NCBI GenBank assembly: GCA_964412025.1
Contig: CAYPLY010000002.1
Location: forward strand, 33,614 to 97,613
Reading direction: 5' to 3'
From: Candidatus Woesearchaeota archaeon
Lineage (GTDB): Archaea; Nanobdellota; Nanobdellia; Pacearchaeales; GW2011-AR1
DNA: 64,000 bases
Both the position numbers and the translations under genes were made by a program. Every line of letters begins with the position of its first letter. Position 1 is the first letter of the stretch. Below the pieces are notes generated by a model. The model saw only the letters and a program-made list of their open reading frames with translations, ran no database searches and was not told the origin of the DNA. Below are positions 8,264 through 64,000 of this stretch, piece by piece.

Positions 8264-8299
8264 TAAACTAAGGTTTTTAAATGGTATTTATCTTTAATT

Positions 8300-10990: not shown

Positions 10991-10991
10991 T

Positions 10992-12092: not shown

Positions 12093-12107
12093 ATAAATAG
12101 AATTTTT

Positions 12108-13268: not shown

Positions 13269-13269
13269 A

Positions 13270-14121: not shown

Positions 14122-14156
14122 GTAGAAAAATATTAAATAAGATTTAAGTTATAGTT

Positions 14157-16078: not shown

Positions 16079-16117
16079 AGGTTAAAGCAATCTATTTAAA
16101 TTAAAGACTTCCTTTTA

Positions 16118-18225: not shown

Positions 18226-18308
18226 AGGAAGTATATTTGGATAAATAAATATTATTTTATATGCTATATATATTTAAAAAGAATTTCAAATAGGATAAAA
18301 TAGGTAAA

Positions 18309-42899: not shown

Positions 42900-44963
42900 T
42901 TAATTGGATAATCTTATTATCTTTTTCCATCCTTTATCGCTTCTTTCTTCATGTATTTTTATTAAACCTTTATTCAATAATTTGTTTTTAAGTATGTTAC
43001 CTTTTCTAGTAGAAAGTCCGATTATTTTGTAAATCTCTACGGTGCTATTGGTATGGGAGGGGTTTTCATTCAGGAAATCCAAAAATCTCTTTTCTTCTGA
43101 AAAGCTTTTAGTGTATAAATTATCCTCATAAATAACTTCAATTATAGGTTTATTTGTTATTCCTTCATTAACCGGAGTATCGGATTCATCTTTCTGATAA
43201 TTTATTTTACCCAGCTTAACTGAATTAAGATAATCCTCTTTTGTTAAGATTCTTCCAAGAGCATAATTTGTTGCTAAGAATATGTCTGCCTCTTTGTAAA
43301 GCTTTTCAGAAATTCCTCCCTCAAGTATCTTTTCTGCCTCCTTAATAGTTCTTCCTTTTTCAACTTGCTTTTTTATGAAATCATAGAGAACGTCCTGAAC
43401 AGGAGTTAGCCCTGTTTTTTCTTCAACTTCATGTACTTCGGAGATTAGAGAATTATCCTCTATATTTTTAGACATTCCTGTTTTTTTAAGATTTATTTCG
43501 ATAGGATTTATATTAGAAGTTGAGTGTGGATTGATTAGAGCTTCTCTAAATTCAGGATCACCCTTTTCAACTTCCAATCCCTGTACGACACAATCCATTT
43601 TTCCTGTAATTTTTTCATCGGAGATATTTGAATTTCTTAAATCAGTATATGGAACCTTAATTAAAAATGGACTTGTATATCTCTCTGAAAGTTTTACTAC
43701 GGCACAACCCACAGGTAACTGGGTGAAAATTTCTCTTCTCTCAGGTATCTGCATTATGGAACTTATATCATAAACATCTTGAGGTAATTGCTGTTGAAAT
43801 GCTATATGACAAGCACTATTTCCTTTTACAGTATCGCTTAATTTTGAGATATGTTGATCTAGACAGATTAGACAAGTTCCATATTCTCTCATCTCTCTGT
43901 AAATCATATCCGTAACAGATTCTGAAACAAAGTAGGTATTACCCTTTAAGAAGATATTATGTGCTTCATCGACAAGAATGGCATGATTAAACCCCTCAGT
44001 TGTCTTTTCAGAGTTAGCTTTCTTTAATTTAAATATATAAGTTAGGATATACTCTGCAAAAAATTTCTTTTCAATATTCCCCAAAGAATTTAACTCAAAG
44101 ATAACTCTTTTATCAAAGAGCTCATCGACTGAAAGACTTTTCTTACCATCATAGTTTATAACTTTACCAAAATCCCCAAAGGTAAGGATAGTTGCAATCC
44201 TAAGAGCGCTTTCATACCAGGTTGCTTCTCTTCCTCTCGCCTCTCTTGCTTTTATTTCAAGCATTTTCTTGATATGCATCCAATTGGGATAGTGTTGTGA
44301 ACCCTTGTATACCTCCCATCCTTCAAAAACCTCATCCAAGGTTTCAAGTAATATCTTGTGTACTCCAAAAGAAACACAAAAGCTCTCTGTGAGCAAATCA
44401 CATAAGGTGTTTATCCATTCTTTAGGTGAAACTCCCTTTGGAGGTATGTTAATGTTTGTCTTAAATAGATTGCTTATAGAATCATTGCCAACTGTAAAAC
44501 ACATAACTGAAGGATCTGTATTAATTAAAGATCTGAAACTTTTTTTCCAGTCAAATACCAAAAAAGGTTTGTCTTTTTCTATAAATCTCTGAAGAATATT
44601 TAATGCAAGAGTTGTTTTACCACTTCCACTCATCCCACTTATACAAACATGTCTTGGCCAGTCTTGTTCTCTCAATGAAAAGGGGAATAATTCTTTATTT
44701 GCATAAACTACCTTTGAAAGTTCATATTCTCCTGAGACTGCACTTTGAGTTGGGGGTTCAAGTAAAACTTTCTTGTCTAGAAACTCTCCTAAATATTTCT
44801 GGTATAGAGCACTTAAAATCTGAACGATTTGATTTCTTTCTTCTGGAGATTCGGACATAGAATATCTGAAGTAAAGCTCGTCTATTTTTCTCCCAAGTAT
44901 TGGCTTTAACTTTGAACTTATTTCTTCTATAGAAAGAGATCTTTGATAGGTCATTTTAATCAT
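42900..44963 (-). CDS. HerA/FtsK-superfamily P-loop ATPase (DUF87/AAA_10-like) with C-terminal winged-helix domain
   Basis: Walker A CISGMSGSGKTT; Walker B AILVDEAHNIF; C-terminal KIIGLSTRKGNILKNKLLNKGLIKI wHTH-like; 687 aa. Confidence 0.6.
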   Translation of the reverse strand: MIKMTYQRSLSIEEISSKLKPILGRKIDELYFRYSMSESPEERNQIVQILSALYQKYLGEFLDKKVLLEPPTQSAVSGEYELSKVVYANKELFPFSLREQDWPRHVCISGMSGSGKTTLALNILQRFIEKDKPFLVFDWKKSFRSLINTDPSVMCFTVGNDSISNLFKTNINIPPKGVSPKEWINTLCDLLTESFCVSFGVHKILLETLDEVFEGWEVYKGSQHYPNWMHIKKMLEIKAREARGREATWYESALRIATILTFGDFGKVINYDGKKSLSVDELFDKRVIFELNSLGNIEKKFFAEYILTYIFKLKKANSEKTTEGFNHAILVDEAHNIFLKGNTYFVSESVTDMIYREMREYGTCLICLDQHISKLSDTVKGNSACHIAFQQQLPQDVYDISSIMQIPERREIFTQLPVGCAVVKLSERYTSPFLIKVPYTDLRNSNISDEKITGKMDCVVQGLEVEKGDPEFREALINPHSTSNINPIEINLKKTGMSKNIEDNSLISEVHEVEEKTGLTPVQDVLYDFIKKQVEKGRTIKEAEKILEGGISEKLYKEADIFLATNYALGRILTKEDYLNSVKLGKINYQKDESDTPVNEGITNKPIIEVIYEDNLYTKSFSEEKRFLDFLNENPSHTNSTVEIYKIIGLSTRKGNILKNKLLNKGLIKIHEERSDKGWKKIIRLSN

Positions 44964-47802: not shown

Positions 47803-48222
47803 TTAATTTTTCTTTATACTTAATTTTTCCAGTTTGTCTTGAACATGATTAAATAAAGTAGTTGAAACCAGAGGTTTGTGATTTCCCTCGTGAATTTGTC
47901 CCCCAAATTTGACTTTTCCCACATATGCGAAGTTTCTTAATACCTTTTTTAAGCCGTTAACTGAAAGTCTATGTTTTGAGGCAAGTATTGATAGATTAAT
48001 ATCTGGCTGAAGAAACTCTTCAAAAATCTCCTCTACTTCTCTTGAATTTTGTGCGGGGATTAATATTTTGTCGCGTAAATCCCATTCATACCCAAATGGA
48101 GCTCTAGACATATGCTTCCCTTCTGAAAACTTTTTTATCATACCTTTTTTCTGGGATTCTCCTCTATCTTCTCTGGAATTGTGTTCTATTTCAAACTCAT
48201 GTCCGCATTTTGGGCATTTCAT
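47803..48222 (-). CDS. Zn-ribbon plus serine-recombinase-type 'recombinase' DNA-binding domain protein (no catalytic resolvase domain)
   Basis: CPKCGHEF zinc ribbon; SRAPFGYEW...LRNFAYVGKVKFGG resembles the PFGY-containing recombinase domain of large serine recombinases; 4-nt overlap with the integrase gene. Confidence 0.45.
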   Translation of the reverse strand: MKCPKCGHEFEIEHNSREDRGESQKKGMIKKFSEGKHMSRAPFGYEWDLRDKILIPAQNSREVEEIFEEFLQPDINLSILASKHRLSVNGLKKVLRNFAYVGKVKFGGQIHEGNHKPLVSTTLFNHVQDKLEKLSIKKN

Positions 48223-49052
48223 TTCATAACCTCATCTATGGGGGATTTAATTTTTTTAAGTTCTTCTCTTGAAATATGAGTATATATCTGGGTAGTTGAA
48301 AGGTCACTATGTCCCAACAACTCTTGTATTTTTCTTATATCTGTCCCATTCTCTAAAAGATGGGTTGCAAAACTATGTCTTAAGGTATGACAATGAACAT
48401 CTTTATTTATTCCCGCTCTTTTTCCTGCTTTAGAAATAATCTTTTGAAGATTTCTTTCAGATAATCTTCCTTTTGGTCCCGTAAACAAATATTCTTTTTT
48501 TTCTTCTTTTTGTTTTTCAACTTGAGTCTTTAAATCTTCTAAAAGAAATTCTGGAAGGTTAAACACCCTATCCTTTTTACCTTTTCCCTGACGAACACTT
48601 CCAATTTTCTCCTCGAAATTTAAATCTTTAACTTTTAAATTAACTAACTCTGAAACTCTAAAACCACAAGCATACATAAAAGATACCATGGTCTTAGATT
48701 TTTTTGTATCTATGGAATTGATAAGTGTCTTAACTTCTTCTTTTGTTAGAACAGAAGGTATCCTTTTTTCTTTTTTGGGACGTTTTATACTAAGGGTTAT
48801 ATCTTTATGAAGAATATTTGTGAAAGAGTACCTTATTGCAGAAAGAAAAACTATGATTGAAGAAGAGGAAGCTTCTCCAAGCTTCTCAACAAGATAGGAC
48901 TTTAAGTCGTCTTCATTTATTTCTTGAGGTTCTTTTTTGATATAATCAAGAAATTTTCTGTTACAATCAAGATAATTTCTAAGAGTATATTCAGAGTTCT
49001 TAGATATTTTTAATTCTATTTCAAGTTTCTTTAAAAAATCTTCTGAATTCAT
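48219..49052 (-). CDS. xerA: Tyrosine site-specific recombinase (XerA/XerC/D-like integrase)
   Basis: C-terminal HTLRHSFATHLLENGTDIRKIQELLGHSDLSTTQIYTH (R...HxxR...Y catalytic box); 277 aa. Confidence 0.8.
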   Translation of the reverse strand: MNSEDFLKKLEIELKISKNSEYTLRNYLDCNRKFLDYIKKEPQEINEDDLKSYLVEKLGEASSSSIIVFLSAIRYSFTNILHKDITLSIKRPKKEKRIPSVLTKEEVKTLINSIDTKKSKTMVSFMYACGFRVSELVNLKVKDLNFEEKIGSVRQGKGKKDRVFNLPEFLLEDLKTQVEKQKEEKKEYLFTGPKGRLSERNLQKIISKAGKRAGINKDVHCHTLRHSFATHLLENGTDIRKIQELLGHSDLSTTQIYTHISREELKKIKSPIDEVMK

Positions 49053-50258: not shown

Positions 50259-51008
50259 TTAACCTAACTCAACATAAAGATAATATGCGGTTGATCCCGA
50301 GAATCCTTGTGATCCGTTTTCTGGAACAAGCATCTGGAAATCATATGTATTTCCATCATAACCTACTAAACCGGGTTCTAGGATTGTTGCATAAATAATG
50401 CTAGTTCCATCATACAATGCCATTTCTTCAAAATCATCATCTTGTGTACCATCACTTACAAAAGTGTTTAAAGTGGGGCATTCATTTGCACTAAATGGAG
50501 TTCCCGCGACATAAAATAAATCATGAGTTCCAGTTTGGAAAGTGGTATTTATAGTATCCTGCCTTAAAGAAATATTATGAAACAGCGCCACATCTTCTGT
50601 TGCAAGAGTAGTGGCAACATCTGCACAATCAATTAGATTCCATTCTATTGTCGAGGAATCTCTTGTTGCATAAACTCTTCCGGAAGTTACAGCAAAACTC
50701 CAATCATAAATAGTTGAACCTGCAGAATCATCCAGTGTGAATGCAGCAGTAATCCATCCTACGAAAGCTTTCCAATGAGTATTTTGAACTGTTGCAGACA
50801 AGTTTAATGCTGCAATGTATCCCCCAGAAATATTGAAAAAACCTGCTGCAGTGGTATTCATAGTCTCATTCCAAACAGAGATAACCTCGCTTGGACCTAC
50901 AGGGTCTGCCGCGGATATAAAAATATTTGATGAAACACAAATTGAAAATATTACACTTGCAAATAAGACAAATGCAAATAATGCTCTGTTTTCTCTTTTT
51001 TTAAACAT
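50259..51008 (-). CDS. Secreted protein, divergent member of the 'SWQGYFG...YYFWVELE' paralogue family
   Basis: Signal peptide; shares THDLFY and the C-terminal ...YYLYVELG with the family. Confidence 0.45.
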   Translation of the reverse strand: MFKKRENRALFAFVLFASVIFSICVSSNIFISAADPVGPSEVISVWNETMNTTAAGFFNISGGYIAALNLSATVQNTHWKAFVGWITAAFTLDDSAGSTIYDWSFAVTSGRVYATRDSSTIEWNLIDCADVATTLATEDVALFHNISLRQDTINTTFQTGTHDLFYVAGTPFSANECPTLNTFVSDGTQDDDFEEMALYDGTSIIYATILEPGLVGYDGNTYDFQMLVPENGSQGFSGSTAYYLYVELG

Positions 51009-51079: not shown

Positions 51080-51838
51080 TTACTCTAACTCTACCCAGAA
51101 GTAATAAGTAGTAGTCGAGGTATCTATTAAATGACCATTTTCTAATACAAGCATTTCAAAGTCATGTGCTCTCCCATCAAAACCTAGTGGACTTTCTTCA
51201 TCCAAGATAGATGTAAAAACTACGCTAAGAGTTGTAGGGTCATATAATAAAACTTCCTGGAACATGCTATCTGTTGCATTTTGATTAGATGCAAAGATGT
51301 GTGTACTTGCACACTCTCCTGGAGTGAAATCAATATTGTTTGTATAAAACAAGTCATGAGTGAGACCAAATCCATTCTCATGAGTTCCACCTACAGAGAA
51401 AGTTTCATTAACTCCATCCACATCGTCTGAAGCTATTCCAAACATTGCTTCTAAATCTTCAAAATAAGTTCCAAGTTCAGTTTCTAAACACTTGATTGTA
51501 CCCCATGTAATTGAATCATTGGTAGAGGCATAGATTTCACCCTCTGGAGAAGCCAAAGACCAGTTGTACATAACATTGTCAGCGCTGTCTGCCAATTGGA
51601 TTGTACCTGAAACATTTCCAAAATAACCTTGCCAGGACTGAGTTATAGAAATACCTGTTACCTCAAGTTCAGTGATATTTCCCGCAATAGCAAAATCACT
51701 ATCTGCAGCGGTCGCATTCATCCTTGAACTGGTTAAATTTGTTACGTCTGCACCAAATGGTTCTACAGCCAAAACTGTAAGAGACAAAAATACAATTAAC
51801 AAAATAGAAAATAGAAACAACTTGCCAAATTTACCCAT
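51080..51838 (-). CDS. Secreted protein of the 'SWQGYFG...YYFWVELE' paralogue family
   Basis: Signal peptide; TQSWQGYFGNVSGTIQLAD...YNWSLASPEGEIYAS...HDFEMLVLENGH...TTTYYFWVELE. Confidence 0.5.
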   Translation of the reverse strand: MGKFGKLFLFSILLIVFLSLTVLAVEPFGADVTNLTSSRMNATAADSDFAIAGNITELEVTGISITQSWQGYFGNVSGTIQLADSADNVMYNWSLASPEGEIYASTNDSITWGTIKCLETELGTYFEDLEAMFGIASDDVDGVNETFSVGGTHENGFGLTHDLFYTNNIDFTPGECASTHIFASNQNATDSMFQEVLLYDPTTLSVVFTSILDEESPLGFDGRAHDFEMLVLENGHLIDTSTTTYYFWVELE

Positions 51839-51984: not shown

Positions 51985-54900
51985 TCAAAATATTTCTACA
52001 TAAAATATTGCGGCTTTTGTGTCCGTTGTTCTATACTCTCTTAATTTTGCAGGCACCCTTATCTCATAATCGTACGTACCATATGTTCCCTCTTTATATT
52101 TGTTAATTGGTGAGATAAAAATTAAATCTTCCTTGTCTGCTAAATCAAACTCTCCATTTGTTCCATTTGTGTCATCGGAGTAATCCCACAATATTCCAGT
52201 AATGAAATTAGAATTGTTTGTAGAATTAATTATTGGAACTTCTTGGATTGTATCGTCAAATGAATAAATATCTGAAGTATATTTTGGTGTTCCTGAATTT
52301 GTATATGTAGAGTAGACAGAGTCAGTATATAGTGTTGAATTTAGTAGAGTGTCTACTTCCTCGAAATCTGAAGCACTATCTGCGTTTAATTTTGTTTTTC
52401 CCAGAGATTGTAAGGTTCCCCAAGAGATATAAGAATCATAATCTGTGATGTAAACATTTCCTTGATTGAAATTTTCTGTACTCCAATTCGTTAATTTAAG
52501 TTCCAAAGAATCTGCAAGAACTAAATTACTAGATGATAAAACATCTCCGTAAAAAAAGTGCCAAGAACCTATACTTATACTTCTACTTGCCTTGTTATTT
52601 GATTCATTTAATTCAATAAAACTTCCGTTTGTTGATAAAGGAGGATCAACAACTACAAAGATTTCTGATGGTCCCATCTGTGAAGACCAATCTTTGGTGA
52701 TATTTATCTGACTAAACATAGAAAGATTTGTATATATATCTGAACCAATTTTAACCCCTCCCAAATCTGGATCTCCCTCGTAAAAGCTGATAGTTACATT
52801 TCCAATATCTACTCCTGCAAGATTATGTATTGTTGCAGTTATCTTTATAACTTGATTTTCTTTTGGATTTGAATTATTAAAAAATATTTCTGATGAATTA
52901 ACAAAAAAGTCTGGATAAGTAAGGTTAAATTTTCTCAATTCGCTTATATTTGTATTTTTCATTTGGTCCCAACAAGTAACATTCCAGGAGTGTTCTCCCT
53001 GTCCCAATACGGAAGTAAGAACATATTCTCTTTTTGAAATATTGCTTGTCACCCAAACATTAGGCCTTCTTACTATTCCATCTATGGTTAGATTACATTG
53101 AAGAATATTATCCAAAACATCTATTGCTGTCCAATTAAAATAAACTCTGTCTTCATTGAAATCTATGCCAGAATTATTTTCTGGAGAGTTCAAAATTATT
53201 AAAGGAGGAGAGAAATCCATGGAGAAATATTTGTGAGTTGCATTTGCATATGAAGGGATAGGATTATTTGTATCAAAACATCCCACCGTCCAATTATGTA
53301 ATCCTTCTGTTATACCCGAAATAGTAAAATTAGGATTTATAATTAATTGAGCAGAAGATTTTGATTCATTTGGAACATCGTCTATGTATAAAGTACAATT
53401 GTTGATTATCTGTGCATCTTCTGCTAAGTAGTGGAAAGTGACTGAACTACCAAAACCATAAAAATCATCATCGGGGGTATAAAGAGTGATCTGAGGAGGA
53501 GCATATACTGTAAAATTTCTTGTTTCACTTGTGTTGGAATTCTCAGCATTGTCTATACATTCGATTGTCCAATTGTAACTTCCATCATCCAACAAATACG
53601 GGTATATTTCTGGAGTTGAATTTTCTGCAATAACTTGATCATAAAAAATATCATTGATGAAAATACTACAAGAGATGTTTTCATTTAAATTGTCTTCCAC
53701 TGTAAAATTAAATAAAACTTCATTCCAATCTAAGGTTTCGTTTGGTTCAGGAAAGTTAAGAACAATATTTGGTGCTTCTGTGTCTATGTATAACGTCCTA
53801 TTTTCATCGCTACCCATTACTCCTAAAGAATCTACACAATAAACATTCCAGGTATAATTCCCTTGAGGAAGAACCTCATTGAAATAATTAGAATTATCGT
53901 TAATTATAGGTGTGGAATTAACAGCTACAAAAGAATCATCTATGTATAATGAACAATTAACAATGTCCTCTTCATATTTGTAAGCATAGTACTCAAATTC
54001 TATTTCTGTATAATTAATCCATAAATCAGGTTCGGGAGATATCAGAATAACTTCGGGTGGAGCAAAAGTAGTAAATGATCTTGTTTCGCTTGTATTTAAA
54101 TTTCCAGATAAATCCGAACAAGAAACATTCCAAAGATGTTCTCCTGAGATTAAATCCCTTGTAATCAAATTTATGCTATTATTTTCTAAAATTAAAGGAG
54201 TTATATTATTATCTACAGTAAAATTACATGTTAAATTTTGTGCAAGGTTATCTCTAGCTGTAAAGTTAAAAGTTATTTGTGAAGAATAAATTACCTCTTC
54301 ATCTTCGGGGTAAGTTAATTCTATTTGTGGAGAGGAATTGTCTCTATAAAAGAATCGTGTTTCTGAATTGTTTTGTAACCCATATGTATCAAAACATCTT
54401 ACATCCCAGCTATAAAAACCATCAGATAAATCGGTTATTGAAAAATTTGTTAATTGATTGTTTAATGGAGAGTGAGCTACATCTTTGAAAGAATTATTTA
54501 TGTAAAGAGAACAATTCGAGAGATTAGTGTTATCTGAAGGAGTGTATTGTAATAAAATATTTTCTTTAAACCAAGTTAAATTTTCTGTAATTAAAGAAAT
54601 CTTTGGAGATTCTCTAATGGTTATCTCTCTATTTTCACTGATATTATAATGTCCTGCAGAATCTACGCAACTTACATTCCAAACTTTTAAACCATCTGTT
54701 AATCCAATTATAGGTCTGCTTGTATTTGCATTTCTTGTTACAACTATATTATTATCATATTTCTCACCTACGCTTAAATTACAAATTAGCTCTGAATCAA
54801 GATTATCTGTAGCATTAAAATAAAAACTTAAATAAGAGGATTGTGAAATTGTTGAAGTCTCTGGATTTAAGAGATAAACAATAGGGTTTTGTGTATCTAC

Positions 54901-57900
54901 ATAAAAAGATCTTGTAGAAGCAAGTGTACTATATCCTCCATTATCGGTTATGTTAACTGTCCAATTATAAAATCCATCTTGAAGCGAGAGTGTAAAATTG
55001 TTGTATGCTTTATTAATAATTAGGGATTGGTTCGATTGGTTGTATGTTCCATTTAAATATAAATCTGCAACATTTAAGTCATTGTTGTCAGAGGCATTAT
55101 AAATAAGAGTAACTAATGAAGTATTAAACCACCAATAATTAGAGGTTATCAAAAATATTTCTGGAGGAACATCATCTATATTAAAATGGAATGTTTCACT
55201 TGTATGGCTCCTTAAAGAATTATCAAAACATGTAACATTCCAATAATGTGTTCCAACGTTTAAGTAACCAGAATTATAACTTGCATTTGTTCCATTTTCA
55301 ACATAAACTCCGGAGTGAATTGTTTTTCCATCTAATATAACATTACAACTAAGATTTAAATCCATATTATCTGTTACATTAAAAACTAAATTTAAATTAT
55401 TTACAAGGTTGTTTGCTCCATCTTCAGGATAAATTAATTTAACAAATGGATTTTCTAGATCAACATAAAATATCCTTGTTTCATTTGAAGCTGCTTCTAA
55501 ATTAGTCCTATCTGTGGCATTAACACTCCAATTATAAATTCCTTGCCCAAGAAAGATTGTAAAATTATTAACTGCATTATTTGTTATTGCAGATTGGTTT
55601 GTTTGATTTTTTTGCCCATTCAGGATTAATGTTGAATTTGCAAGATTGTCATTTAAATCAGAAACATTGTAATAAAGAACTACTTGAGATGAATTAAACC
55701 AAGTTAAATTGGTTGGAGAAGTTAAATTTACGCTTGGAGGAGTTGCCCCCGCAGAAGTTACCGTTACAGGGTTTGTTGTTGTCCCATTATAATTATCATA
55801 TGTTCCAACTGAAATACATCGGATATTGTTGTCTGAAGAATAAGCATTCCCTCTTATAACAAATGTAGTGTTTTGAGAAACATTTGTTACATTCCCTAAA
55901 TAATGGGGATTAGTTTCTCCTGAGTTTAAAATAAGATTTCCTGAAGAACCTATATTGACCCATCCTGAAGTTGAAGTGTTTCTTTGAATGTACACATTAA
56001 CATTTCTGCAAGTTCCAAAAGAACAATTAACTTCGCATGTTGCCTCGAAAGTGTCTTCTTGGGGAACATATGGATCAACTAAGGGGGAAACTAAGTCTGT
56101 ATGTAAAAATCCTTCTGTAGTTAAATTAACAACAACATAGGAGTTTGTTCCTGAATCCCAAGTATGAGTTAATACTTTATCTTTATTATGAGTATTATAT
56201 GCATTAATAACTAATTTTAGTCTATCACTTTGTCCCAAATAGATATCTCTATCTATACAAGTAGTGTTTGTTCCTGATGCTGCATTTTCAAAAATACCGC
56301 TATTTGCATCATTCCCTAGTTGACATATTAAAGTATCTGTTCCCCCCCTAGAAACATAAAGTTTCCAAGTTATTGCAATCTTTCCCGCAGGGGTTGAAGA
56401 GCTAAATGTTCCAGAAAAACTAATAGGGGTTCCAGAAGGGATAACAGCCCCATTATATCCCATATATTGGGAAGTTGCACTAACTATATTTGCTAATCCT
56501 CCTGCACCAATATCAAATATAACAGAATTCGTTGTTGCATCCTGGGTGCTTTTTAATTTTATTTCTGCTAAAGTATTTCTGGAAGGATTAAATGTTGAAC
56601 TTTCATATAATGTTCCTGTAAATAATTCGGGGGTTATAGAGACATTTATTGTCCTATTTTGGCTGAACCCTGTTCTACCTCCTTCATCAACACATGAAAC
56701 ATACCAAGTGTATATTCCATTATCTAAGAATTCATTGAAGGTCATATTTGAATTTTTTGTTATTGAATACTCTGTTTTCTTTAATTGATTGTTTATATAT
56801 AAAGAACAATTCTCAACTGAAGATAAATCAGAAACATTATACACAAAATATAAATTATCATCGCTTGTTATTGTAGAAGAGTTTGGAGGGTAAATTAAAT
56901 TAATTATTGGAGCAGCTAAATCAAATGAGAATGTATAATTATTTGCTCCAAAAAAACATCCATTAGAAGAGTCACAGCATTGTATATTCCATATATAATC
57001 TCCAGAAGAGGAATAAGTTTTGTTTATATAATTAAAAGTGTTATTAAAAATTGTGGATTGATTTGTTAAATTTCTATGCCAACTTCCAGTTGAATTGTCC
57101 CACAAACTGCAATTCAAAAAAGTAGCAGAAGAAATTGGAGTAAAATTAAAGACAACATTTTGGGAATAAAGAATATCTGTGGTTATGGGGGTTCTTAAAA
57201 GAACTTCAAATGCTCCTGTTTCATAAGTACTATAACTTATCCGCATATATCCTGCTGCTCCTGCTCCTCCACTAACTGATCCTCCTGAACCTTTTCTTCC
57301 TCCTCCACCTCCTCCACCATAAGTATTACCTGGATTTCCTGAGCCAGTTGTTGTTCTTCCTGCACCCCCATCTCCTCCTAATTCGGGGGTTCCTGTTCCT
57401 GCTGTACCCACACTTGCATTTCCTCCAATTCCTGTTGAACCTGCTCCTCCACCTCCTGCACCAGAGAATGTAGAATTAGCAGTTCCCCCTTCTCCACCCA
57501 TATAAATCAAATCTCCTATTGAATTTGTAACACTTCCTCCTTCTCCTCCTGTTCCTGCACTTAACCCTCCACTTCCTCCGGCAGCATATAACTCTGAACC
57601 ATCTCCAAAGTAAGTAGGATTTCCCGAGGCTCCATTTCCAGAAGTTCCTGCAACGCTTGTTCCTACAACAAGGGTATAATTTTGATAAGGAGTAACTGAG
57701 AAGGTTTTTTTAGCATAAGCTCCTCCTCCTCCACCTCCTGCAATTCCTCCACCTCCTGCGGGCCTTCCTCCTCCTGCTCCTCCTCCTCCCCAGGCTTCAA
57801 CAGTAATTTCATAAACTCCTGCTGGAACCATCCAGGTTGTACTTGAAGTAAAGTTCTCTAAATAGTAAGTATAAGGATCAAGAATATGGTCAAATTCAAC

Positions 57901-59298
57901 ACCTCCTCCAACAACTCTTAAATCGAAAGTATCTTGAATATCTGAGATTAAATTTGTTAAATAAATTTTATTGTACTCATCTGAAACTAAGGGAGTGAAT
58001 TCTGCAATTTTTATATCTGAATTAAATTCATAGACTTCAACTACTGGATTTCCACTTATAATTCTCGGAAAAATAGTTATATCTCTTTTATTGTCTAAAG
58101 GAACTTCAAAAGTTACTCTCACATAATCTCCATCTGAGATTTCTTCAGACCAGATATTATCTAATTCCTTAACTTCATTGTAAATATCTGAGATAAATTC
58201 CTTACTTGAAGAGAGATGGTCTGCCTTAGTTATAATAATTATCTCAAATGTTTGTTCGGATAAATGGGGTACAATCCATTCAACATAATCAATTAGTCCG
58301 TTATTGTTTGTGTCTTTTGCCTCAAAATTAAGATAAATTCCTTCCTCTTTCCAATAAATCTTTATGAAATCCTCCTGCCCAGTAGAAACTCTCTCAGGTA
58401 TTGAAGTGTAAGATAAAACATTCTCATAATGTACGTCCTCTTGAGAATAAACAATAACCTCTTTTTTATTTTCAGAGATATTCTTCTCCTCTATCTTTGG
58501 GGGCTCCGTAAAATATTCTAAGCTAAGATCCTCGGAGGGAGTTTCTCCAAGGTTTATAAATTTCTTTCCCTCAATCTCAACAATGTCATAATTAACAAAA
58601 ACCTCCCCATTTTCTTTTTTCAACTCTAATCCTATAGTGTTTGGAATCTCAATTAAACTAAGAGAATCTGCTTCCTTTACAAGCTTATTCCAAATTACTG
58701 GCTTGCCAATTTCTGCTTTTCCTTGGATTAAGCCTTGTTGAGAAGGAGAGTTTACTGAAAATTGATAATATTTAATTGCGTTTCCTCTTTCAAAACGTAC
58801 AGAATAAACTCCTTCCTCTAATAAATCAAAAAAGAATATATCATTGGAAGAAACCCTTGAGGATCTCTTTCCTGAGGGAGATAGAATTAATAATTCATAA
58901 TTTCCAAGTCCGTTAAAATTGAATTTCAGAGTATCCCAAAGAAGATAAGAGTTATCTGTTTCAAAATCAAATAAGATATAATCTTCTCGATTTGAGTTAA
59001 CCTGAAACTTTAATCTCTCAGAATAATCTTCTGATTTTATCTCGACTATATATTCTCCTACTTCAGTGAACTTTAGAGAAAGTTTATCCTCACAAACCTC
59101 CTGAACAATTATTTTTGAAGGGGCCTTAATTTTTAAAGAACAGGGGTTATATTTTGTTAAATCAATCTTTACTTCTTCTCCAAGAGAATAAGATTCTGCA
59201 GTAGAGGCTGAGCTGAATAGGGAAGAGAATATAAGGGCAAGCAATAAGACAAAAATTAAAATAATTACACCTATTTTTATAGCTCCTTTTTTGTTCAT
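51985..59298 (-). CDS. Giant (2,437 aa) secreted cell-surface protein: N-terminal beta domains, Gly-rich domain, at least 12 tandem ~95-aa Ig-like sequon-rich repeats
   Basis: Signal peptide; TWMVPAGVYEITVEAWGGGGAGGG...Gly-rich block (aa ~480-690); repeats with conserved P.I.L..P...C.L....N.S.F...DG.Y.W.V.C.D; ends ...AIFYVEIF. Confidence 0.6.
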   Translation of the reverse strand: MNKKGAIKIGVIILIFVLLLALIFSSLFSSASTAESYSLGEEVKIDLTKYNPCSLKIKAPSKIIVQEVCEDKLSLKFTEVGEYIVEIKSEDYSERLKFQVNSNREDYILFDFETDNSYLLWDTLKFNFNGLGNYELLILSPSGKRSSRVSSNDIFFFDLLEEGVYSVRFERGNAIKYYQFSVNSPSQQGLIQGKAEIGKPVIWNKLVKEADSLSLIEIPNTIGLELKKENGEVFVNYDIVEIEGKKFINLGETPSEDLSLEYFTEPPKIEEKNISENKKEVIVYSQEDVHYENVLSYTSIPERVSTGQEDFIKIYWKEEGIYLNFEAKDTNNNGLIDYVEWIVPHLSEQTFEIIIITKADHLSSSKEFISDIYNEVKELDNIWSEEISDGDYVRVTFEVPLDNKRDITIFPRIISGNPVVEVYEFNSDIKIAEFTPLVSDEYNKIYLTNLISDIQDTFDLRVVGGGVEFDHILDPYTYYLENFTSSTTWMVPAGVYEITVEAWGGGGAGGGRPAGGGGIAGGGGGGAYAKKTFSVTPYQNYTLVVGTSVAGTSGNGASGNPTYFGDGSELYAAGGSGGLSAGTGGEGGSVTNSIGDLIYMGGEGGTANSTFSGAGGGGAGSTGIGGNASVGTAGTGTPELGGDGGAGRTTTGSGNPGNTYGGGGGGGRKGSGGSVSGGAGAAGYMRISYSTYETGAFEVLLRTPITTDILYSQNVVFNFTPISSATFLNCSLWDNSTGSWHRNLTNQSTIFNNTFNYINKTYSSSGDYIWNIQCCDSSNGCFFGANNYTFSFDLAAPIINLIYPPNSSTITSDDNLYFVYNVSDLSSVENCSLYINNQLKKTEYSITKNSNMTFNEFLDNGIYTWYVSCVDEGGRTGFSQNRTINVSITPELFTGTLYESSTFNPSRNTLAEIKLKSTQDATTNSVIFDIGAGGLANIVSATSQYMGYNGAVIPSGTPISFSGTFSSSTPAGKIAITWKLYVSRGGTDTLICQLGNDANSGIFENAASGTNTTCIDRDIYLGQSDRLKLVINAYNTHNKDKVLTHTWDSGTNSYVVVNLTTEGFLHTDLVSPLVDPYVPQEDTFEATCEVNCSFGTCRNVNVYIQRNTSTSGWVNIGSSGNLILNSGETNPHYLGNVTNVSQNTTFVIRGNAYSSDNNIRCISVGTYDNYNGTTTNPVTVTSAGATPPSVNLTSPTNLTWFNSSQVVLYYNVSDLNDNLANSTLILNGQKNQTNQSAITNNAVNNFTIFLGQGIYNWSVNATDRTNLEAASNETRIFYVDLENPFVKLIYPEDGANNLVNNLNLVFNVTDNMDLNLSCNVILDGKTIHSGVYVENGTNASYNSGYLNVGTHYWNVTCFDNSLRSHTSETFHFNIDDVPPEIFLITSNYWWFNTSLVTLIYNASDNNDLNVADLYLNGTYNQSNQSLIINKAYNNFTLSLQDGFYNWTVNITDNGGYSTLASTRSFYVDTQNPIVYLLNPETSTISQSSYLSFYFNATDNLDSELICNLSVGEKYDNNIVVTRNANTSRPIIGLTDGLKVWNVSCVDSAGHYNISENREITIRESPKISLITENLTWFKENILLQYTPSDNTNLSNCSLYINNSFKDVAHSPLNNQLTNFSITDLSDGFYSWDVRCFDTYGLQNNSETRFFYRDNSSPQIELTYPEDEEVIYSSQITFNFTARDNLAQNLTCNFTVDNNITPLILENNSINLITRDLISGEHLWNVSCSDLSGNLNTSETRSFTTFAPPEVILISPEPDLWINYTEIEFEYYAYKYEEDIVNCSLYIDDSFVAVNSTPIINDNSNYFNEVLPQGNYTWNVYCVDSLGVMGSDENRTLYIDTEAPNIVLNFPEPNETLDWNEVLFNFTVEDNLNENISCSIFINDIFYDQVIAENSTPEIYPYLLDDGSYNWTIECIDNAENSNTSETRNFTVYAPPQITLYTPDDDFYGFGSSVTFHYLAEDAQIINNCTLYIDDVPNESKSSAQLIINPNFTISGITEGLHNWTVGCFDTNNPIPSYANATHKYFSMDFSPPLIILNSPENNSGIDFNEDRVYFNWTAIDVLDNILQCNLTIDGIVRRPNVWVTSNISKREYVLTSVLGQGEHSWNVTCWDQMKNTNISELRKFNLTYPDFFVNSSEIFFNNSNPKENQVIKITATIHNLAGVDIGNVTISFYEGDPDLGGVKIGSDIYTNLSMFSQINITKDWSSQMGPSEIFVVVDPPLSTNGSFIELNESNNKASRSISIGSWHFFYGDVLSSSNLVLADSLELKLTNWSTENFNQGNVYITDYDSYISWGTLQSLGKTKLNADSASDFEEVDTLLNSTLYTDSVYSTYTNSGTPKYTSDIYSFDDTIQEVPIINSTNNSNFITGILWDYSDDTNGTNGEFDLADKEDLIFISPINKYKEGTYGTYDYEIRVPAKLREYRTTDTKAAIFYVEIF

Positions 59299-59299
59299 C

Positions 59300-59533
59300 T
59301 TATTTCTTAATCTCCCAAAGATTTATTCTTCCAACCCTAAACCCATTTAGTTTATTGCTTAACTGTAATCTCAAGCAGCGCGTTTGAATAGAATGCCAGG
59401 GCTTACTTATCTCATCGGCTATCTCTTGGGTGGATTTTGGATTAACTGAATTTGAAAGACATTTAACAATCTCCCCTTCAAGTAAATCCTCTTTTTTGCG
59501 ATTAATCGTACGATTAATCATCCTTTTAACCAT
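59300..59533 (-). CDS. Small winged-helix transcriptional regulator
   Basis: 77 aa; LEGEIVKCLSNSVNPKSTQEIADEISKPWHSIQTRCLRLQ HTH-like; its stop abuts the giant gene's start. Confidence 0.45.
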   Translation of the reverse strand: MVKRMINRTINRKKEDLLEGEIVKCLSNSVNPKSTQEIADEISKPWHSIQTRCLRLQLSNKLNGFRVGRINLWEIKK

Positions 59534-59590: not shown

Positions 59591-60958
59591 TCAATAAATC
59601 TCTACAGCGAATTTCCCCTTATTTAAAACATATGTGGAATAATAAATATATTTGTTATCTTCATTATAAAAATCAAGAAAAACAGGTTTATTTTTATAAA
59701 AAAGCTGCAGGGTTTTATTCTTTTCTACTTTGAATATTAAAAAGATATCTTCAATATCGTTTTGGGGCATACTGGAAAGTATTGTAAATGATCTTTTATT
59801 GTTCCTGCCTCTCGTATTCTCTTCAAACTTGACATTGGAATGGGATTTTGATATATTTTTATTGGGAAATATAGCAACAATGTTTAGATACCCTTCGCTG
59901 TAGTTAAAAACTATGGGTTCATCTGGAGAGGCTCTTTGTGCAACCACTTTATTGAAATAACCTTCCTTTATATCTTTAGCTTTATGAAAAGGGATCAACT
60001 TAGTTCTAAACACTCTTAATTTAGTTGATTTATTTTGGTTATACATAGATTGATAAAATTGATAATCTGTTTTTAAAAGGACTTCTGGACTTATGAAACT
60101 ATAATTGATTGAAAACTCTTTTTGATTATCTATACTTTCTTTTAATATATTGTGTGTTTCACTAAAGTCTCCAGAGAAAAGATTATCTAAAGAGTCCCAT
60201 TCTGATGAAAAATAAAGCAAAAAATCCCCGGATACAGGATGCGAAGAGCTAAAAGCAGAGGTAAATATAATGTCTTCATTGGAAGGAATATAAAAAAACT
60301 CTCCTCTAAAATAACATTTATCACAAATGACATTATTTTTAATATTAAAATAATCTAAGTTATAAAAAACTAATTTTTCAGATATTTCTCTTTTACCATA
60401 AGAAATAAGAGTTAACTCATTTTCTCCCTTTTCCAATTCTATTGGAATTAAAACTTCGTTGCAGTTCTCACAAAAATGTTGATATATTTGTTTATTTGAA
60501 CTTTTAAGAGAGTAATTTAAACTGTTATAATTGCTTGCGAGAGAGAGATTTAAGTAAATATTGGATTGGTTTACAAAGATTCTCCCAGAGGGAGAATGTA
60601 TGTAGATTGCTTTTTGAGGATTTAACTGTGGAAATATTTCGTATCCCTCCCCGGTTATTACCAAGCTAACAGACTCAGATATAATCCCTAATTCTTCGTC
60701 AAAAACCTCTGCATAAATTTCATCCCCGAATGTAAAATTTCCTAGTTCTTCAATATCACAGCAAAATTTGTTCTCTGGGTTAATTTTACAACTAGCGGTC
60801 TTTAGGGGTTTTTCATCTTCATAAATTAAAACGTTTCCCCAAGAAGAAGAAAACTCTTCTGAATCGGAAACTATGCCACAAGCAAAATTGGATGAAATAA
60901 AAGATAAACTAAAAAGCACACCTGCAAAAAATACAAAAATAAAACAATATTTATTCAT
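59591..60958 (-). CDS. Secreted sequon-rich protein ending in ...KFAVEIY
   Basis: Signal peptide begins at the internal Met (MNKYCFIFVFFAGVLFSLSFISSNFA); the track ORF extends to 61045 but overlaps the upstream gene; many N-x-S/T. Confidence 0.4.
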   Translation of the reverse strand: MNKYCFIFVFFAGVLFSLSFISSNFACGIVSDSEEFSSSWGNVLIYEDEKPLKTASCKINPENKFCCDIEELGNFTFGDEIYAEVFDEELGIISESVSLVITGEGYEIFPQLNPQKAIYIHSPSGRIFVNQSNIYLNLSLASNYNSLNYSLKSSNKQIYQHFCENCNEVLIPIELEKGENELTLISYGKREISEKLVFYNLDYFNIKNNVICDKCYFRGEFFYIPSNEDIIFTSAFSSSHPVSGDFLLYFSSEWDSLDNLFSGDFSETHNILKESIDNQKEFSINYSFISPEVLLKTDYQFYQSMYNQNKSTKLRVFRTKLIPFHKAKDIKEGYFNKVVAQRASPDEPIVFNYSEGYLNIVAIFPNKNISKSHSNVKFEENTRGRNNKRSFTILSSMPQNDIEDIFLIFKVEKNKTLQLFYKNKPVFLDFYNEDNKYIYYSTYVLNKGKFAVEIY

Positions 60959-60992
60959 AAGTGTAGTAAAATAATGAAGTATAAAAGATTTT

Positions 60993-62093
60993 CTAACTAT
61001 CTGCAAGATGGATAAATTCCTCCTCTGTGGTCCTAGATTTTGCAAGAATAGCTATTGCAAAAAGAACTATTGCCCCCCCAAAAATGGAAAAGAAACCAGA
61101 AATATTTGTAGAAAATCCTAAGTCCAGAAAATCTTCATATGAAATTAAAATATTAAATCCAATTATTAATAAAGATATTTCTTTCATAAAAGTACCTCCT
61201 CCAAAAAAGAACAGCAATGCGATTAAAAGAGGAAGAAATATCCCCCCAAATATAATCATATTTAAAGAGCCCACACTATTGTTGCAGATAATTTCTGTAT
61301 GAGGTAGGCCCCCTTCATATATAATTCTTTCCAAATCGCAATTCGGATTTGTTTTGGAAATCAAAAAATGTCCTCCTTCATGGATTGTTAGAACTCCTAT
61401 AAAAATAAAGTTGGTTAATATTATTATAAAAACAAAATAACGTAAAAAATCAAAGAAATAATTATTATGCTTAAACTTTAAAGTTCTTCTCTCAAAAAAA
61501 TACTTTGGTAGTTTTTTCAAATCTAAGAAAAAGAAGAAAAGAAAAATTATGAAGAATGTATTGGATATTAAACTAACAATTGGAGAAAATTCTTTCTGGA
61601 AGAAAATAAGTACTTGTAAAAATAGCGACATCGAAGAGTAAAGTATAGCAAATTTAGAGGACCTCCCAAAATTAGGAGAAGGTATCATTAATATGAAAAG
61701 AACCATTATAAGGAATAATGAAGAGATTACGAGAAAGTTAGAGAAATCTATTCCTATAAGGACAGACAAGATAAATACCCCGTGAATTGAAAGAAGATAA
61801 AAAATCTTTTTGCTTTTTCTTATTGAGTAAATTATCGCCAGCAATAAAATTGATTCAATAAATAATACAATAGAATGAATGAATAGTAAATCTAAGGAAT
61901 TATATTTTTCCAGATTGAAAATCCAAGAAAATAAAACTAAAGAAAGCAAGATAAATACCCCCCCCAATAAAAAAAACAAAAAGAATATCTTTTTAGTATG
62001 CTGGTCACTGTAATATTTAACAAATTTAAAGATAAGGAAAATAGATATTCCTAGAGAGATTATAAGATTTAATATAAGCAAAAGTTTTATCAT
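60993..62093 (-). CDS. Polytopic membrane protein with HExxH zinc-metalloprotease motif (M50/site-2-protease-like)
   Basis: At least 9 TM helices; TIHEGGHFLIS inside a hydrophobic segment; later DFLDLG. Confidence 0.4.
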   Translation of the reverse strand: MIKLLLILNLIISLGISIFLIFKFVKYYSDQHTKKIFFLFFLLGGVFILLSLVLFSWIFNLEKYNSLDLLFIHSIVLFIESILLLAIIYSIRKSKKIFYLLSIHGVFILSVLIGIDFSNFLVISSLFLIMVLFILMIPSPNFGRSSKFAILYSSMSLFLQVLIFFQKEFSPIVSLISNTFFIIFLFFFFLDLKKLPKYFFERRTLKFKHNNYFFDFLRYFVFIIILTNFIFIGVLTIHEGGHFLISKTNPNCDLERIIYEGGLPHTEIICNNSVGSLNMIIFGGIFLPLLIALLFFFGGGTFMKEISLLIIGFNILISYEDFLDLGFSTNISGFFSIFGGAIVLFAIAILAKSRTTEEEFIHLADS

Positions 62094-62226: not shown

Positions 62227-62928
62227 TTATTCTAATTCTACCCAAAAGTAATAGGTAGTTGTTGCAATATCTGATCCATGGCCGTCTTCCAATACTATCA
62301 TCTCGAAATCGTGAGGGTTGTTATCAAATCCGTTTGCATCTTCTAACAACAATGATGCAAATATTAGACTTTCGCCATCTGTTAATAAAACCTCGTTGAA
62401 AGTTCCTACTCCTGCACTGTTAAATAACAACGTATTATCACACATTCCAGTTGTGAATTGTTTGCTATTGGAAAAAAACTCGGGATGATTATTAAGACCA
62501 AATGTTTCGTTTATACCATCGGCATCGTCCCATTCAATTCCGAACATGTTCTCAAAGTATGTCATGTTATTTGTTTCATCATAACATTGAATCCCGTCCC
62601 AAACAACACCTGAAGCGTTTGATGCATAGATTTCACCCTCTGGAGAAGCAAGAGACCAGTTATACAAGACATTATCCGAAATATCTGCTAATTGTATTGA
62701 ACCTGAAACATTACCAAAATAACCCTGCCAAGATTGAGTTACGGATGTTGCAGTGATTTCAAGTTCTGTAACATTTCCTGCATAAGCAGAAGTATTCCCT
62801 GCATCACTAGTGTTCATTCTTGTACTAGTAAAATTAGTTACATCGGCACCAGTAGGAAGAGCGGAAACTAACATGGGCAACAACAATATCAAAAAGAATA
62901 CCCAAATAAAATTAATGATTTTCTTCAT
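62227..62928 (-). CDS. Secreted protein of the 'SWQGYFG...YYFWVELE' paralogue family
   Basis: Near-identical motifs to the 51080 gene (TQSWQGYFGNVSGSIQLAD, YNWSLASPEGEIYAS, TTTYYFWVELE). Confidence 0.5.
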   Translation of the reverse strand: MKKIINFIWVFFLILLLPMLVSALPTGADVTNFTSTRMNTSDAGNTSAYAGNVTELEITATSVTQSWQGYFGNVSGSIQLADISDNVLYNWSLASPEGEIYASNASGVVWDGIQCYDETNNMTYFENMFGIEWDDADGINETFGLNNHPEFFSNSKQFTTGMCDNTLLFNSAGVGTFNEVLLTDGESLIFASLLLEDANGFDNNPHDFEMIVLEDGHGSDIATTTYYFWVELE

Positions 62929-63547
62929 CTTTTTTACCTCCTTTCAGCTCTATACTTTTTTTTAAAAAAATAGGACATCTATGTACTATGAAAAGAGAGG
63001 AGAGATTCAGATTAGTTATTTCTTCAAGGGAATGGAACTCAAAATTTACTTTATCTTCATGCTTTTTTGAAAGAGCTTCTATGGCTTGCTGAGTCTTTTT
63101 ATCTTCTAGAAATATAATTATAGAATGGTTTGACTTTTTTGGGTCAACAAAAATTGCATTGATATCCTTAAAAACATCTTTAACTCTGTATAACAAATTT
63201 TCTAATATATTCTGGAGATGTTTATTTTCTAAAAACCATGTTCTCAACATAGACTTTTGATAATCGTCTAGGTTCAGAGATTTCTTCTCCCCAAAACCAT
63301 TTGACAACATTACAGAATATGAAATGTCTTTTGAGATTGAAAATAGATTCCTTGGTTTTCCTTTTTCAAATGCCCCTGTTTTTTCTTTAGAAACAATCTG
63401 CGCAGCTTCAAGCAGTTTTAACTGTTGACTGATAAAAGAAACTGTTGTTTTCGTTTTTTCAGCAATTTCTATTGGAGAAGAAGGCCTTTCTGAAATTATT
63501 TTTAGAATTTCCCATCTAGGTGAGGCTAGAAACGAATCGAGTTCCAT
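62912..63547 (-). CDS. ArsR/winged-helix family transcriptional regulator with extended C-terminal domain
   Basis: LASPRWEILKIISERPSSPIEIAEKTKTTVSFISQQLKLLEAAQIV HTH; overlaps the start of the downstream paralogue gene by 17 nt. Confidence 0.5.
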   Translation of the reverse strand: MELDSFLASPRWEILKIISERPSSPIEIAEKTKTTVSFISQQLKLLEAAQIVSKEKTGAFEKGKPRNLFSISKDISYSVMLSNGFGEKKSLNLDDYQKSMLRTWFLENKHLQNILENLLYRVKDVFKDINAIFVDPKKSNHSIIIFLEDKKTQQAIEALSKKHEDKVNFEFHSLEEITNLNLSSLFIVHRCPIFLKKSIELKGGKKDEENH

Positions 63548-63722: not shown

Positions 63723-64000
63723 TTACTCTAACTCTACCCAGAAGTAATAAGTGGTGGTAGAAGTATCTGTTAAATGTCCATTTTCTAATACAAGCATCTC
63801 GAAATCGTGAGGGTTGTTATCAAAACCAAAAACATCTTCATTTAGAAGAGAGGCAAAAACAACGCTATATGTTGTAGGTTCATATAACAAAACTTCTTCA
63901 AATTTATTGTCTTCTCCCTGACCTGCATCGCTAAATACTTGAGTATTCCTACACTCTCCCTCTCCAAACTCCAAATTGTTTGTATAAAAAGTGTTATGTC
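63723..64000 (-). CDS. Secreted paralogue-family protein, 5'-partial (N-terminus lies beyond the window end)
   Basis: Frame open to base 64000; ...HNTFYTNNLEFGEGEC...HDFEMLVLENGH...TTTYYFWVELE aligns with the C-terminal half of the 51080 and 62227 genes. Confidence 0.5.
   Translation of the reverse strand, partial: HNTFYTNNLEFGEGECRNTQVFSDAGQGEDNKFEEVLLYEPTTYSVVFASLLNEDVFGFDNNPHDFEMLVLENGHLTDTSTTTYYFWVELE

Follow-up and report, generated by a model that had tools for sequence, protein, structure and literature searches.

The 64-kb window analysed here (64,000 nucleotides of contig CAYPLY010000002.1, assembly GCA_964412025.1, from a Candidatus Woesearchaeota archaeon, a tiny and probably host-dependent member of the DPANN to which NCBI gives the label Woesearchaeota or Pacearchaeota) carries on its minus strand a giant gene, a single open reading frame (ORF) whose product we refer to as the giant. 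To our knowledge, none of the Pacearchaeota or Woesearchaeota has been cultivated. An initial annotation, made from the letters alone, had called the gene the largest of the window and its product secreted, which the ORF and its signal peptide verify; the giant is the largest secreted protein of the window and among its most rich in N-x-S/T sequons. An exact-sequence look-up returned no record of the protein and an NCBIfam scan no family, while its Pfam list at E≤1 comprises only Big_13, Gly_rich_2, Big_7, Ig_J and DUF4625. The full-length homologues P0001 and P0002 are 97% and 78% identical to it. Its composition divides in two, with aa 34–476 rich in Glu and Lys (E 10–13%, K 7–8%) and the remainder rich in Asn, Ser and Thr with ~2% Lys, and its one hydrophobic segment lies at aa ~5–30, with none at the C-terminus. 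In the order of the protein, and all on the minus strand, the features are:

51985–59298, minus: the giant gene, a single ORF with an ATG start, 2,437 aa plus stop
59200–59298, minus: Sec-type signal peptide, aa 1–33 (MNKKGAIK, a hydrophobic core, then SSASTA with the predicted cut before E; by inspection)
58744–59199, minus: two small beta-rich domains, aa 34–185, with no family match and no Pfam
57871–58743, minus: conserved N-module, aa 186–476 (core 255–476), with beta-sandwiches and a jelly roll as well as the EF-hand-like loop DTNNNGLIDYVE
57232–57846, minus: glycine-rich domain, aa 485–689, Pfam Gly_rich_2 (PF21722), 36% Gly
56647–57207, minus: immunoglobulin (Ig)-like repeats 1–2, aa 698–884, found by the protein's own hidden Markov model (HMM) at 1e-23 and 3e-29, with Big_7 at aa 797–865
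55738–56646, minus: non-repeat insert, aa 885–1187, beta-rich, 6 Cys, no significant Pfam match
52927–55737, minus: Ig-like repeats 3–12, aa 1188–2124, found by the same HMM, with Big_13 over 4 stretches
52585–52914, minus: CARDB domain, aa 2129–2238, Pfam PF07705 at 7e-6 with the C-terminal fragment scanned alone
51988–52584, minus: C-terminal domain, aa 2239–2437, ending ...FYVEIF-COOH and homologous to the small secreted ...VELE family

The amino-terminal segment has the make-up of a Sec signal peptide, as first proposed. In 35 homologues the same n/h/c layout recurs, with an h-region ending in AxA-like motifs (VSA, ASA, SSA), and because layout and ending are both kept, a cleavable signal peptide is the straightforward reading; cleavage in the giant itself is predicted, although its hydrophobic segment, at ~22 residues, would also suffice to span a membrane. 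The two domains that follow, aa 34–185, are the fastest-diverging part of the protein, with 78–88% identity to P0001 and 44–62% to P0002, compared with 100% and 82–90% for the giant's middle.

The region matched most often among homologues is the N-module, found at 36–59% identity in over 110 large proteins that otherwise differ in architecture. In A1, an alignment of 30 members headed by the giant, 30 columns are invariant, and the aligned giants are 43–60% identical to the query across the module; the A1 profile scores P0001 at E 1.2e-117. The invariant columns include the loop D-T-N-N-N-G-x-I-D-Y-V-E, which fits a canonical 12-residue EF-hand loop and draws weak EF-hand Pfam matches in 9 of the 30 members. 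An AlphaFold2 model of the module is all-beta (predicted local distance difference test, pLDDT, 89.7), and its jelly roll appears CBM32/discoidin-like; from the loop and the model we propose that the module may bind calcium and be lectin-like. Against 1.84 billion representatives the profile retrieved 2,677 clusters at E≤1e-3, 2,363 at E≤1e-10 and 1,311 at E≤1e-30, the module-bearing proteins ranging from 333 to 5,919 aa and the module usually starting 100–900 aa from the N-terminus. No Pfam family covers the module, the homologues' precomputed Pfam lists hold no common accession, and a PDB sequence search with the profile gave no relative. Judged by these matches, the giant is a member of what appears to be a new superfamily, defined by the N-module (aa ~255–476).

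The glycine-rich block starts exactly at TWMVPAGVYEITVEAWGGGG, and the phage-like character ascribed to it in the initial annotation is borne out both by Gly_rich_2 (E 6e-10, 39.9 bits against a gathering cut-off of 24.3, model positions 4–225 of 226) and by PHROG 863 ('tail fiber assembly', tail category), which matches aa 483–688 at E 1e-18. With the glycine-rich domains of phage tail fibres it shares a length of ~200 aa and the motif W-x-VP-x-GV...GGGG followed by Gly-rich repeats; it differs from them in that this domain is the only part of the giant to match, the rest of the protein and its locus having no viral relatives. As far as sequence search reaches, the Gly_rich_2 family has no solved fold, the PDB search with the domain yielding nothing beyond linker artefacts, and a literature search on PF21722 and Gly_rich_2 found nothing specific. 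The domain may be linked to the polyglycine-II sandwiches of phage gp38 and ALK.

Beyond the glycine-rich block, at least 12 tandem Ig-like repeats had been described, each with two Cys and a Trp. An iterated repeat HMM finds exactly 12 units (E 1e-23 to 7e-33), and the count stands, but since 2 of them (aa 698–884) and 10 of them (aa 1188–2124) flank a ~300-aa insert, they do not form one uninterrupted tandem array. Likewise the Trp is conserved in 12 of 12 repeats but the Cys pair in 10 of 12, R3 and R5 being without it (consensus P.i.L..P...v.f.y.a.D...nC.L...G.y.WnV.C.D...se..tR.F). A phmmer search seeded with a single repeat recovers the others at E 2.6e-21 to 0.016 and also touches aa 1112–1160, non-significantly (E 1.0). 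In the Pfam check that the initial annotation had named, Big_13 (6.8e-17, 62.3 bits against a cut-off of 27) and Big_7 (28.0 bits against 24.1) exceed their gathering thresholds, as Gly_rich_2 does, while CARDB reaches 26.6 bits against a threshold of 22.7 in the scan of the C-terminal fragment and is unlisted in that of the whole protein. Pairwise identity among the repeats is 20–51%, and alternate units are closer than neighbours (R3–R5 51%, R3–R7 40%, R8–R10 37%), an odd/even likeness which implies that the duplicated unit is a double domain of ~190 aa; repeats 3–12 amount to about five of these. The insert is 100% identical in L001, a differently assembled locus from JGI metagenome 3300010355, 40–47% identical in the loci L002 and L004, and missing from locus L003.

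It is exceedingly unlikely that this repeat region is a collapsed or chimeric product of assembly. In addition to the low identity among repeats, Tandem Repeats Finder detects no DNA-level tandem repeat in the Ig region and only short GGN-type runs in the glycine-coding part; L001 spans the whole region at 100% identity (52.8–58.5 kb of the window); P0002 is colinear end to end; and ~20 homologues at 39–46% identity are colinear as well, with the same layout and repeat count. Collapse, a check on which the initial annotation had left pending, was rejected on these grounds. Two observations nevertheless lean the other way. One is a break in the GTDB representative metagenome-assembled genome (MAG) CAZTCF01 ('Ca. 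Woesearchaeota archaeon binchicken_co111_164'), where the two parts of the giant gene lie on separate contigs that part at ~57162–57167; the break (~57165) adjoins the glycine-coding low-complexity DNA and lies just past it. The other is that the window and two other assemblies disagree at the ends of the gene alone, which could reflect strain-bubble mixing. Relative to L001 and L005/L014 the window is 100% identical over 48.6–64.0 kb except in two sharply bounded segments, 51.9–52.8 kb (the CARDB end and the C-terminal domain; 80–90% identity) and 58.5–59.4 kb (aa 1–~265; ~80%); left of 46.8 kb, identity falls to 70–85%. P0002 is likewise most diverged at both ends of the giant. Divergence bounded in this way indicates that the two termini exist as exchangeable alleles, a difference that could stem from recombination or gene conversion or from the mixing of strain bubbles in assembly.

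The C-terminal domain ties the giant to a family of small secreted proteins, named here for their ending. The window encodes three complete members and one partial copy, of 233–252 aa, all ending ...TTYYFWVELE:

62227–62928, minus: ...VELE paralogue, 233 aa, upstream of the giant, 54% identical to the 252-aa protein
51080–51838, minus: ...VELE protein, 252 aa, secreted, the next gene downstream of the giant, with 8 sequons where 2.8 are expected
50259–51008, minus: ...VELE paralogue, 249 aa, 34% identical to the 252-aa protein
63723–64000: partial ...VELE copy

Alignment of the two profiles by hhalign gives a probability of 94% (E 1.5e-7, over small-protein residues 52–252), reciprocal HMM searches give 1.8e-7 and 6.3e-7, and BLASTP between domain and small protein gives 1.6e-4; in L002, from a Pacearchaeota MAG, tblastn with the giant's C-terminal domain matches both the end of the orthologous giant and the small gene downstream of it. 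The chain ends one residue past F-[YW]-[VIL]-E-[LIV] without exception in the 40 giants and 120 small proteins compared. The small family counts 1,036 homologues, typically 55–80% identical (mean column identity 54%), none of them named or with a Pfam domain, and carries 3.15 sequons per 100 aa against 1.42 expected; a PDB sequence search with its profile found no fold. The first ~45 residues of the mature proteins form a conserved stretch to which the model gives little structure (pLDDT 44–67). In L004, a 650-aa CARDB protein (L004:2361–4313) also closes with a giant-type C-terminal domain, and a second giant of 2,510 aa with an N-module (L004:24160–31692) stands beside the orthologous one. 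With these extra carriers, N-module and C-terminal domain are evidently reused in several proteins per genome.

The giant and the small proteins belong to a conserved locus, whose other members in the window are:

60993–62093, minus: membrane protein, 366 aa, ~9 hydrophobic segments, invariant HExGH
59591–60958, minus: secreted protein, ~455 aa (484 aa in the ORF list), a conserved gene lying after that of the membrane protein and before the giant's
59300–59533, minus: winged-helix gene, 77 aa, stop 1 nt before the giant's ATG, weak HTH_12 match, position kept in L001, L003 and L004
49295–50257, minus: secreted 320-aa protein, third gene of the downstream triplet, 22 sequons against 6.3 expected, the densest in the window

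Apart from the weak HTH_12 match, the giant's neighbours have no Pfam hit at E≤10. The membrane protein, itself without a Pfam match, has HExGH and two Cys invariant in 24 orthologues, together with a GFN...D motif, and may be an intramembrane metalloprotease. In its listed form of 484 aa (59591–61045, minus) the ORF of the secreted protein begins with a TTG farther upstream and runs into the end of the membrane-protein gene; translation more likely begins at the ATG used in the L001 gene call, which gives 455 aa and a signal peptide (MNKYCFIFVFF...). The 320-aa protein is related neither to the ...VELE family nor to the Ig repeats.

A scan with the small-family profile, over one genome per GTDB species, returned 203 relatives, from which 80 loci were kept, all of them MAGs labelled Woesearchaeota, Pacearchaeota, Nanoarchaeota, Diapherotrites or plain 'archaeon'. 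In 34 of the 80 the giant's C-terminal domain lies upstream of small-family genes, and in most of these another small gene and then the 320-aa gene come next; a further 15 show two small genes, the membrane protein, sometimes the 455-aa protein, and then the giant's N-module; the remainder are mostly short contigs. Gene order is the same in L001, which holds the 97% homologue, and in L003, a Nanobdellota MAG with a 52–64% homologue: a HerA/DUF87 ATPase of ~1,125 aa, a 107-aa gene, one of ~286 aa, small, helix-turn-helix (HTH), small, membrane protein, ~455-aa secreted protein, 73–77-aa winged helix, giant, small, small, 320-aa gene and one of ~53 aa. L002 has the giant, one gene on the opposite strand, and then genes of 250, 254 and 336 aa. 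The HerA-like membrane ATPase is present in both fully read loci, L001 and L003. In L001 it lies past the window's right end (L001:85–3474), opening the conserved locus as a 1,129-aa protein of HerA/DUF87/FtsK type. Two transmembrane (TM) segments enclose its ectodomain, which is ~630 aa long, rich in sequons and has CarboxypepD_reg domains, and a P-loop domain of HerA/FtsK type follows on the cytoplasmic side. A literature search on giant Pacearchaeota surface proteins found nothing specific, and the locus goes unmentioned in a recent survey of complete Nanobdellota genomes; our searches and the literature covered yielded no earlier description of the N-module, the ...VELE domain or the locus.

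These surroundings, like the glycine-rich domain, raise the idea that the giant is the fibre of a virus or mobile element, or a freely released factor, which we regard as very improbable. The PHROG match is to a phage tail family; close by are FtsK/HerA-type ATPases that weakly match Zot and TrwB, along with a tyrosine recombinase and a fragment of a recombinase; and two genomes that have otherwise diverged share the region at 100% identity. Yet the PHROG match is confined to one domain, neither the N-module nor the small family has a relative in 2.9 million IMG/VR contigs, the locus recurs in dozens of DPANN MAGs, and in the genome with the 52–64% homologue it again lies beside ribosomal proteins S9 and L13. 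A provirus was rejected on the absence of IMG/VR relatives and on this stable chromosomal context, and Foldseek against viral structures (BFVD) returned only generic beta-sandwich matches (TM scores 0.13–0.29). The window's recombinase genes (47803–49052, minus) encode a tyrosine recombinase of XerC/D type (277 aa) and a recombinase-domain fragment of 139 aa. They sit where identity to L001 shifts from 100% to ~95%, and in L003 the locus is flanked by these genes too; the tyrosine recombinase is probably the housekeeping XerA and not the integrase of an element.

The giant also stands out in its sequons. It has 106, against 46.6 ± 5.6 in composition-preserving shuffles (z 10.5), and among 62 window ORFs the giant (z 10.1) and its 320-aa neighbour (z 7.6) are by far the strongest; the three small neighbours reach z 2.9–3.6 and two short ORFs with 2–3 sequons each 3.4 and 2.8, the others scattering around zero. 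The initial annotation's sequon saturation therefore holds as strong enrichment, at 5–11 per repeat where it had counted 6–9. Within the repeats ~4–5 alignment columns (26, 36, 78/80, 91) are filled in 4–6 of the 12 units, and across 114 homologues enrichment is 2.3-fold. The pathway that might use these sites lies far from the giant's locus:

7253–8263, plus: GT4 (AglH-like) gene of the N-glycosylation cluster
8300–10990, plus: AglB/STT3 oligosaccharyltransferase, matching Pfam STT3 (8.5e-18) and the AglB core domain, outside the giant's locus

The pathway noted earlier is present as a complete AglB-type set, from 7253 to 20160. Its AglB is the presumed modifying enzyme of the giant, which from its signal peptide, read by inspection, is predicted to be extracytoplasmic and has both the sequons and, in the same window, the oligosaccharyltransferase expected for an AglB substrate; the earlier suggestion of such a substrate is a reasonable one, and the giant's Asn residues are predicted to bear glycans. 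The cluster (7253–20160, plus) comprises GT4, AglB/STT3, a DUF362/ferredoxin gene, two GT1 and three GT2 genes, a radical-SAM/SPASM gene, a methyltransferase and an RmlD-like reductase.

Syntenic orthologues retain aa 1–492 and aa 1175–2437 and exchange what lies between. In P0003–P0007, P0012 and P0014 the middle is ~2,200 aa with DUF2341 and LamG; other orthologues carry H-lectin, DUF1080-type or pentraxin/LamG domains there, and those of 2.2–2.35 thousand aa almost nothing. At this one locus the proteins range from 2,212 to 4,196 aa and differ by up to ~1,700 aa. The swapping of a binding-type cassette argues for the behaviour of an adhesin and not of a lattice, and bears on the idea, raised in the initial annotation, that the giant is the main S-layer protein. 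In favour of a principal lattice-forming glycoprotein, the giant is the largest and among the most sequon-rich secreted proteins of the window, and candidate DPANN S-layer proteins are Ig-rich, N-glycosylated and without a C-terminal TM segment (10.1101/2023.10.27.564410). Those candidates, however, are ~1,000 aa long (10.1101/2023.10.27.564410); the giant matches no S-layer family or sorting signal in Pfam or NCBIfam and is laid out as head, stalk and end domain; its orthologues, with their different central domains and lengths, are hard to square with a conserved lattice; and at the locus the ~250-aa ...VELE proteins are far more conserved and abundant. We therefore consider the S-layer assignment improbable and do not follow it, while the adhesin or fibre named alongside it is reasonable given the stalk architecture and the swapped binding domains. 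The initial annotation had also passed over the two family-defining modules, at the N-module and the C-terminus, and the conserved gene cluster.

A swappable cassette and a lectin-like module, parted from an end domain by a glycosylated Ig stalk, make the layout of a stalked adhesin, and we lean, by a modest degree, towards reading the giant as a Sec-exported, AglB-glycosylated surface protein of this type, with an N-terminal head and a C-terminal domain docked to a ...VELE assembly. The signal peptide would be removed on export. The N-terminal third would then serve as the working head, made up of the two fast-evolving domains, a putatively calcium-binding, lectin-like module and the glycine-rich domain that resembles those of phage tail fibres. 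Twelve predicted disulfide-braced Ig-like domains and CARDB would form the stalk, tens of nanometres long if judged from domain count, which AglB would coat with N-glycans at the recurrent positions. The C-terminal ~200 aa would keep the giant on the cell, docked in an assembly formed by the ...VELE glycoproteins, whose genes flank the giant's; the proposal is based on the homology of this domain with the small family and on the chain end that the two have exactly in common. Polarity, docking and adhesive role are all what we infer from this arrangement.

Some observations weigh against this reading. The N-module's conservation, and its recurrence in thousands of otherwise different proteins, would suit a shared role in anchoring or assembly better than specific host recognition. 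A glycan-poor head would have been in keeping with our reading, and aa 1–480 hold a single sequon, but the shortage is not significant (z −1.6); nor is there a general shortage in homologues, whose N-module carries 1.6 sequons per 100 aa against 1.0 expected. A sequon-depleted head was accordingly dropped as a firm claim.

The conservation and N-proximal position of the N-module give weight to a reversed polarity, which we think unlikely but a serious rival: the N-terminal segment or the N-module would anchor the protein, in the cell's own membrane or to its own glycans as SLH and CWB2 modules do for bacterial surface proteins, and the C-terminal domain would point outward, priming or capping a ...VELE polymer. 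An N-proximal module common to ~2,400–2,700 clusters of otherwise different large proteins is typical of anchoring or assembly; the hydrophobic segment could stay in the membrane; and the poorly structured N-terminal stretch modelled in the small proteins could be an inter-subunit strand. What speaks for the stalked adhesin with its N-terminus outward is that throughout the family the h-region ends in a conserved AxA-like cleavage motif, that in many relatives the module lies 300–900 aa from the N-terminus, a poor membrane-proximal geometry, and that reversal would place the swappable binding-type cassette by the membrane.

The proteins proposed for host contact in DPANN are surface proteins that combine Ig-like and lectin-like folds with numerous N-glycosylation sites (10.1101/2023.10.27.564410; PMC5498576), and no DPANN S-layer or attachment protein has been experimentally determined (10.1101/2023.10.27.564410). 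The putative surface glycoproteins of Nanobdella aerobiophila, Mia14 and nanohaloarchaea, with Ig-, lectin-, LamG-, CARDB- and pectin-lyase-like domains, share with the giant a signal peptide, many sequons, Ig-like folds, lectin-like modules and the lack of a C-terminal TM segment. They are mostly ~900–1,300 aa and need not be homologous to the giant, and it differs from them in its undescribed N-module superfamily, in a C-terminal domain held in common with small proteins and in its conserved multi-gene locus. Bacterial Ig-repeat adhesins (Big_13/Big_7; RTX- and Bap-type) resemble it in arrays of ~90-aa Ig domains that extend between an end domain and a ligand-binding region, whereas the giant is a Sec-exported protein of an archaeon, with its dense sequons in each repeat and a Cys pair in most; a Pfam scan at E≤1 found in it no RTX repeats, type I secretion signal or LPXTG motif, and no SPEARE-type protease or restriction-endonuclease domains.

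The tip adhesins of donor-strand-exchange fibres (FimH/PapG; archaeal threads, bundling pili and cannulae) may be compared with it, in that their last domain is homologous to small co-encoded subunits and their N-terminal part lectin-like; the giant's locus has neither chaperone nor usher, and the comparison is one of analogy alone. With archaeal S-layer glycoproteins (Haloferax SLG, Sulfolobales SlaA/SlaB, NEQ300-type candidates) the giant would share secretion, AglB N-glycosylation and richness in Ig domains, and it differs in matching none of their families, in having no PGF-CTERM or TM anchor (no archaeosortase or sorting signal, PGF-CTERM included, was found in Pfam or NCBIfam) and in the variable domains of its orthologues. 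By their sequence matches its domains belong to Big_13, Gly_rich_2 and CARDB, and the protein as a whole to none of the described S-layer, RTX, SPEARE or phage-fibre families.

The gene cluster around the giant may build an attachment apparatus. More specifically, and tentatively, with doubt outweighing confidence, the giant could be the adhesin or tip of an undescribed archaeal surface appendage or attachment organelle built of ...VELE glycoproteins and served by the HExGH protein and, in L001 and L003, by the HerA/FtsK-type ATPase. If so, host contact in Pacearchaeota and Woesearchaeota would have its genetic basis in the ~25-kb locus. In any case the locus supplies widely conserved candidates for the surface or host-contact apparatus of these archaea: a giant with a swappable cassette, a Pfam-less module of wide distribution, and an abundant small family without a known fold. 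The giant would also illustrate, from nature, how N-glycans at specific positions can densely shield an Ig stalk.

Two further genes of the window deserve mention. A second DUF87 ATPase, soluble-looking and of 687 aa, is encoded at 42900–44963 on the minus strand; the weak Zot and TrwB matches are common to both DUF87 ATPases. A second HTH gene, ArsR/MarR-like and of 211 aa (62912–63547), overlaps the start of the 233-aa small gene.

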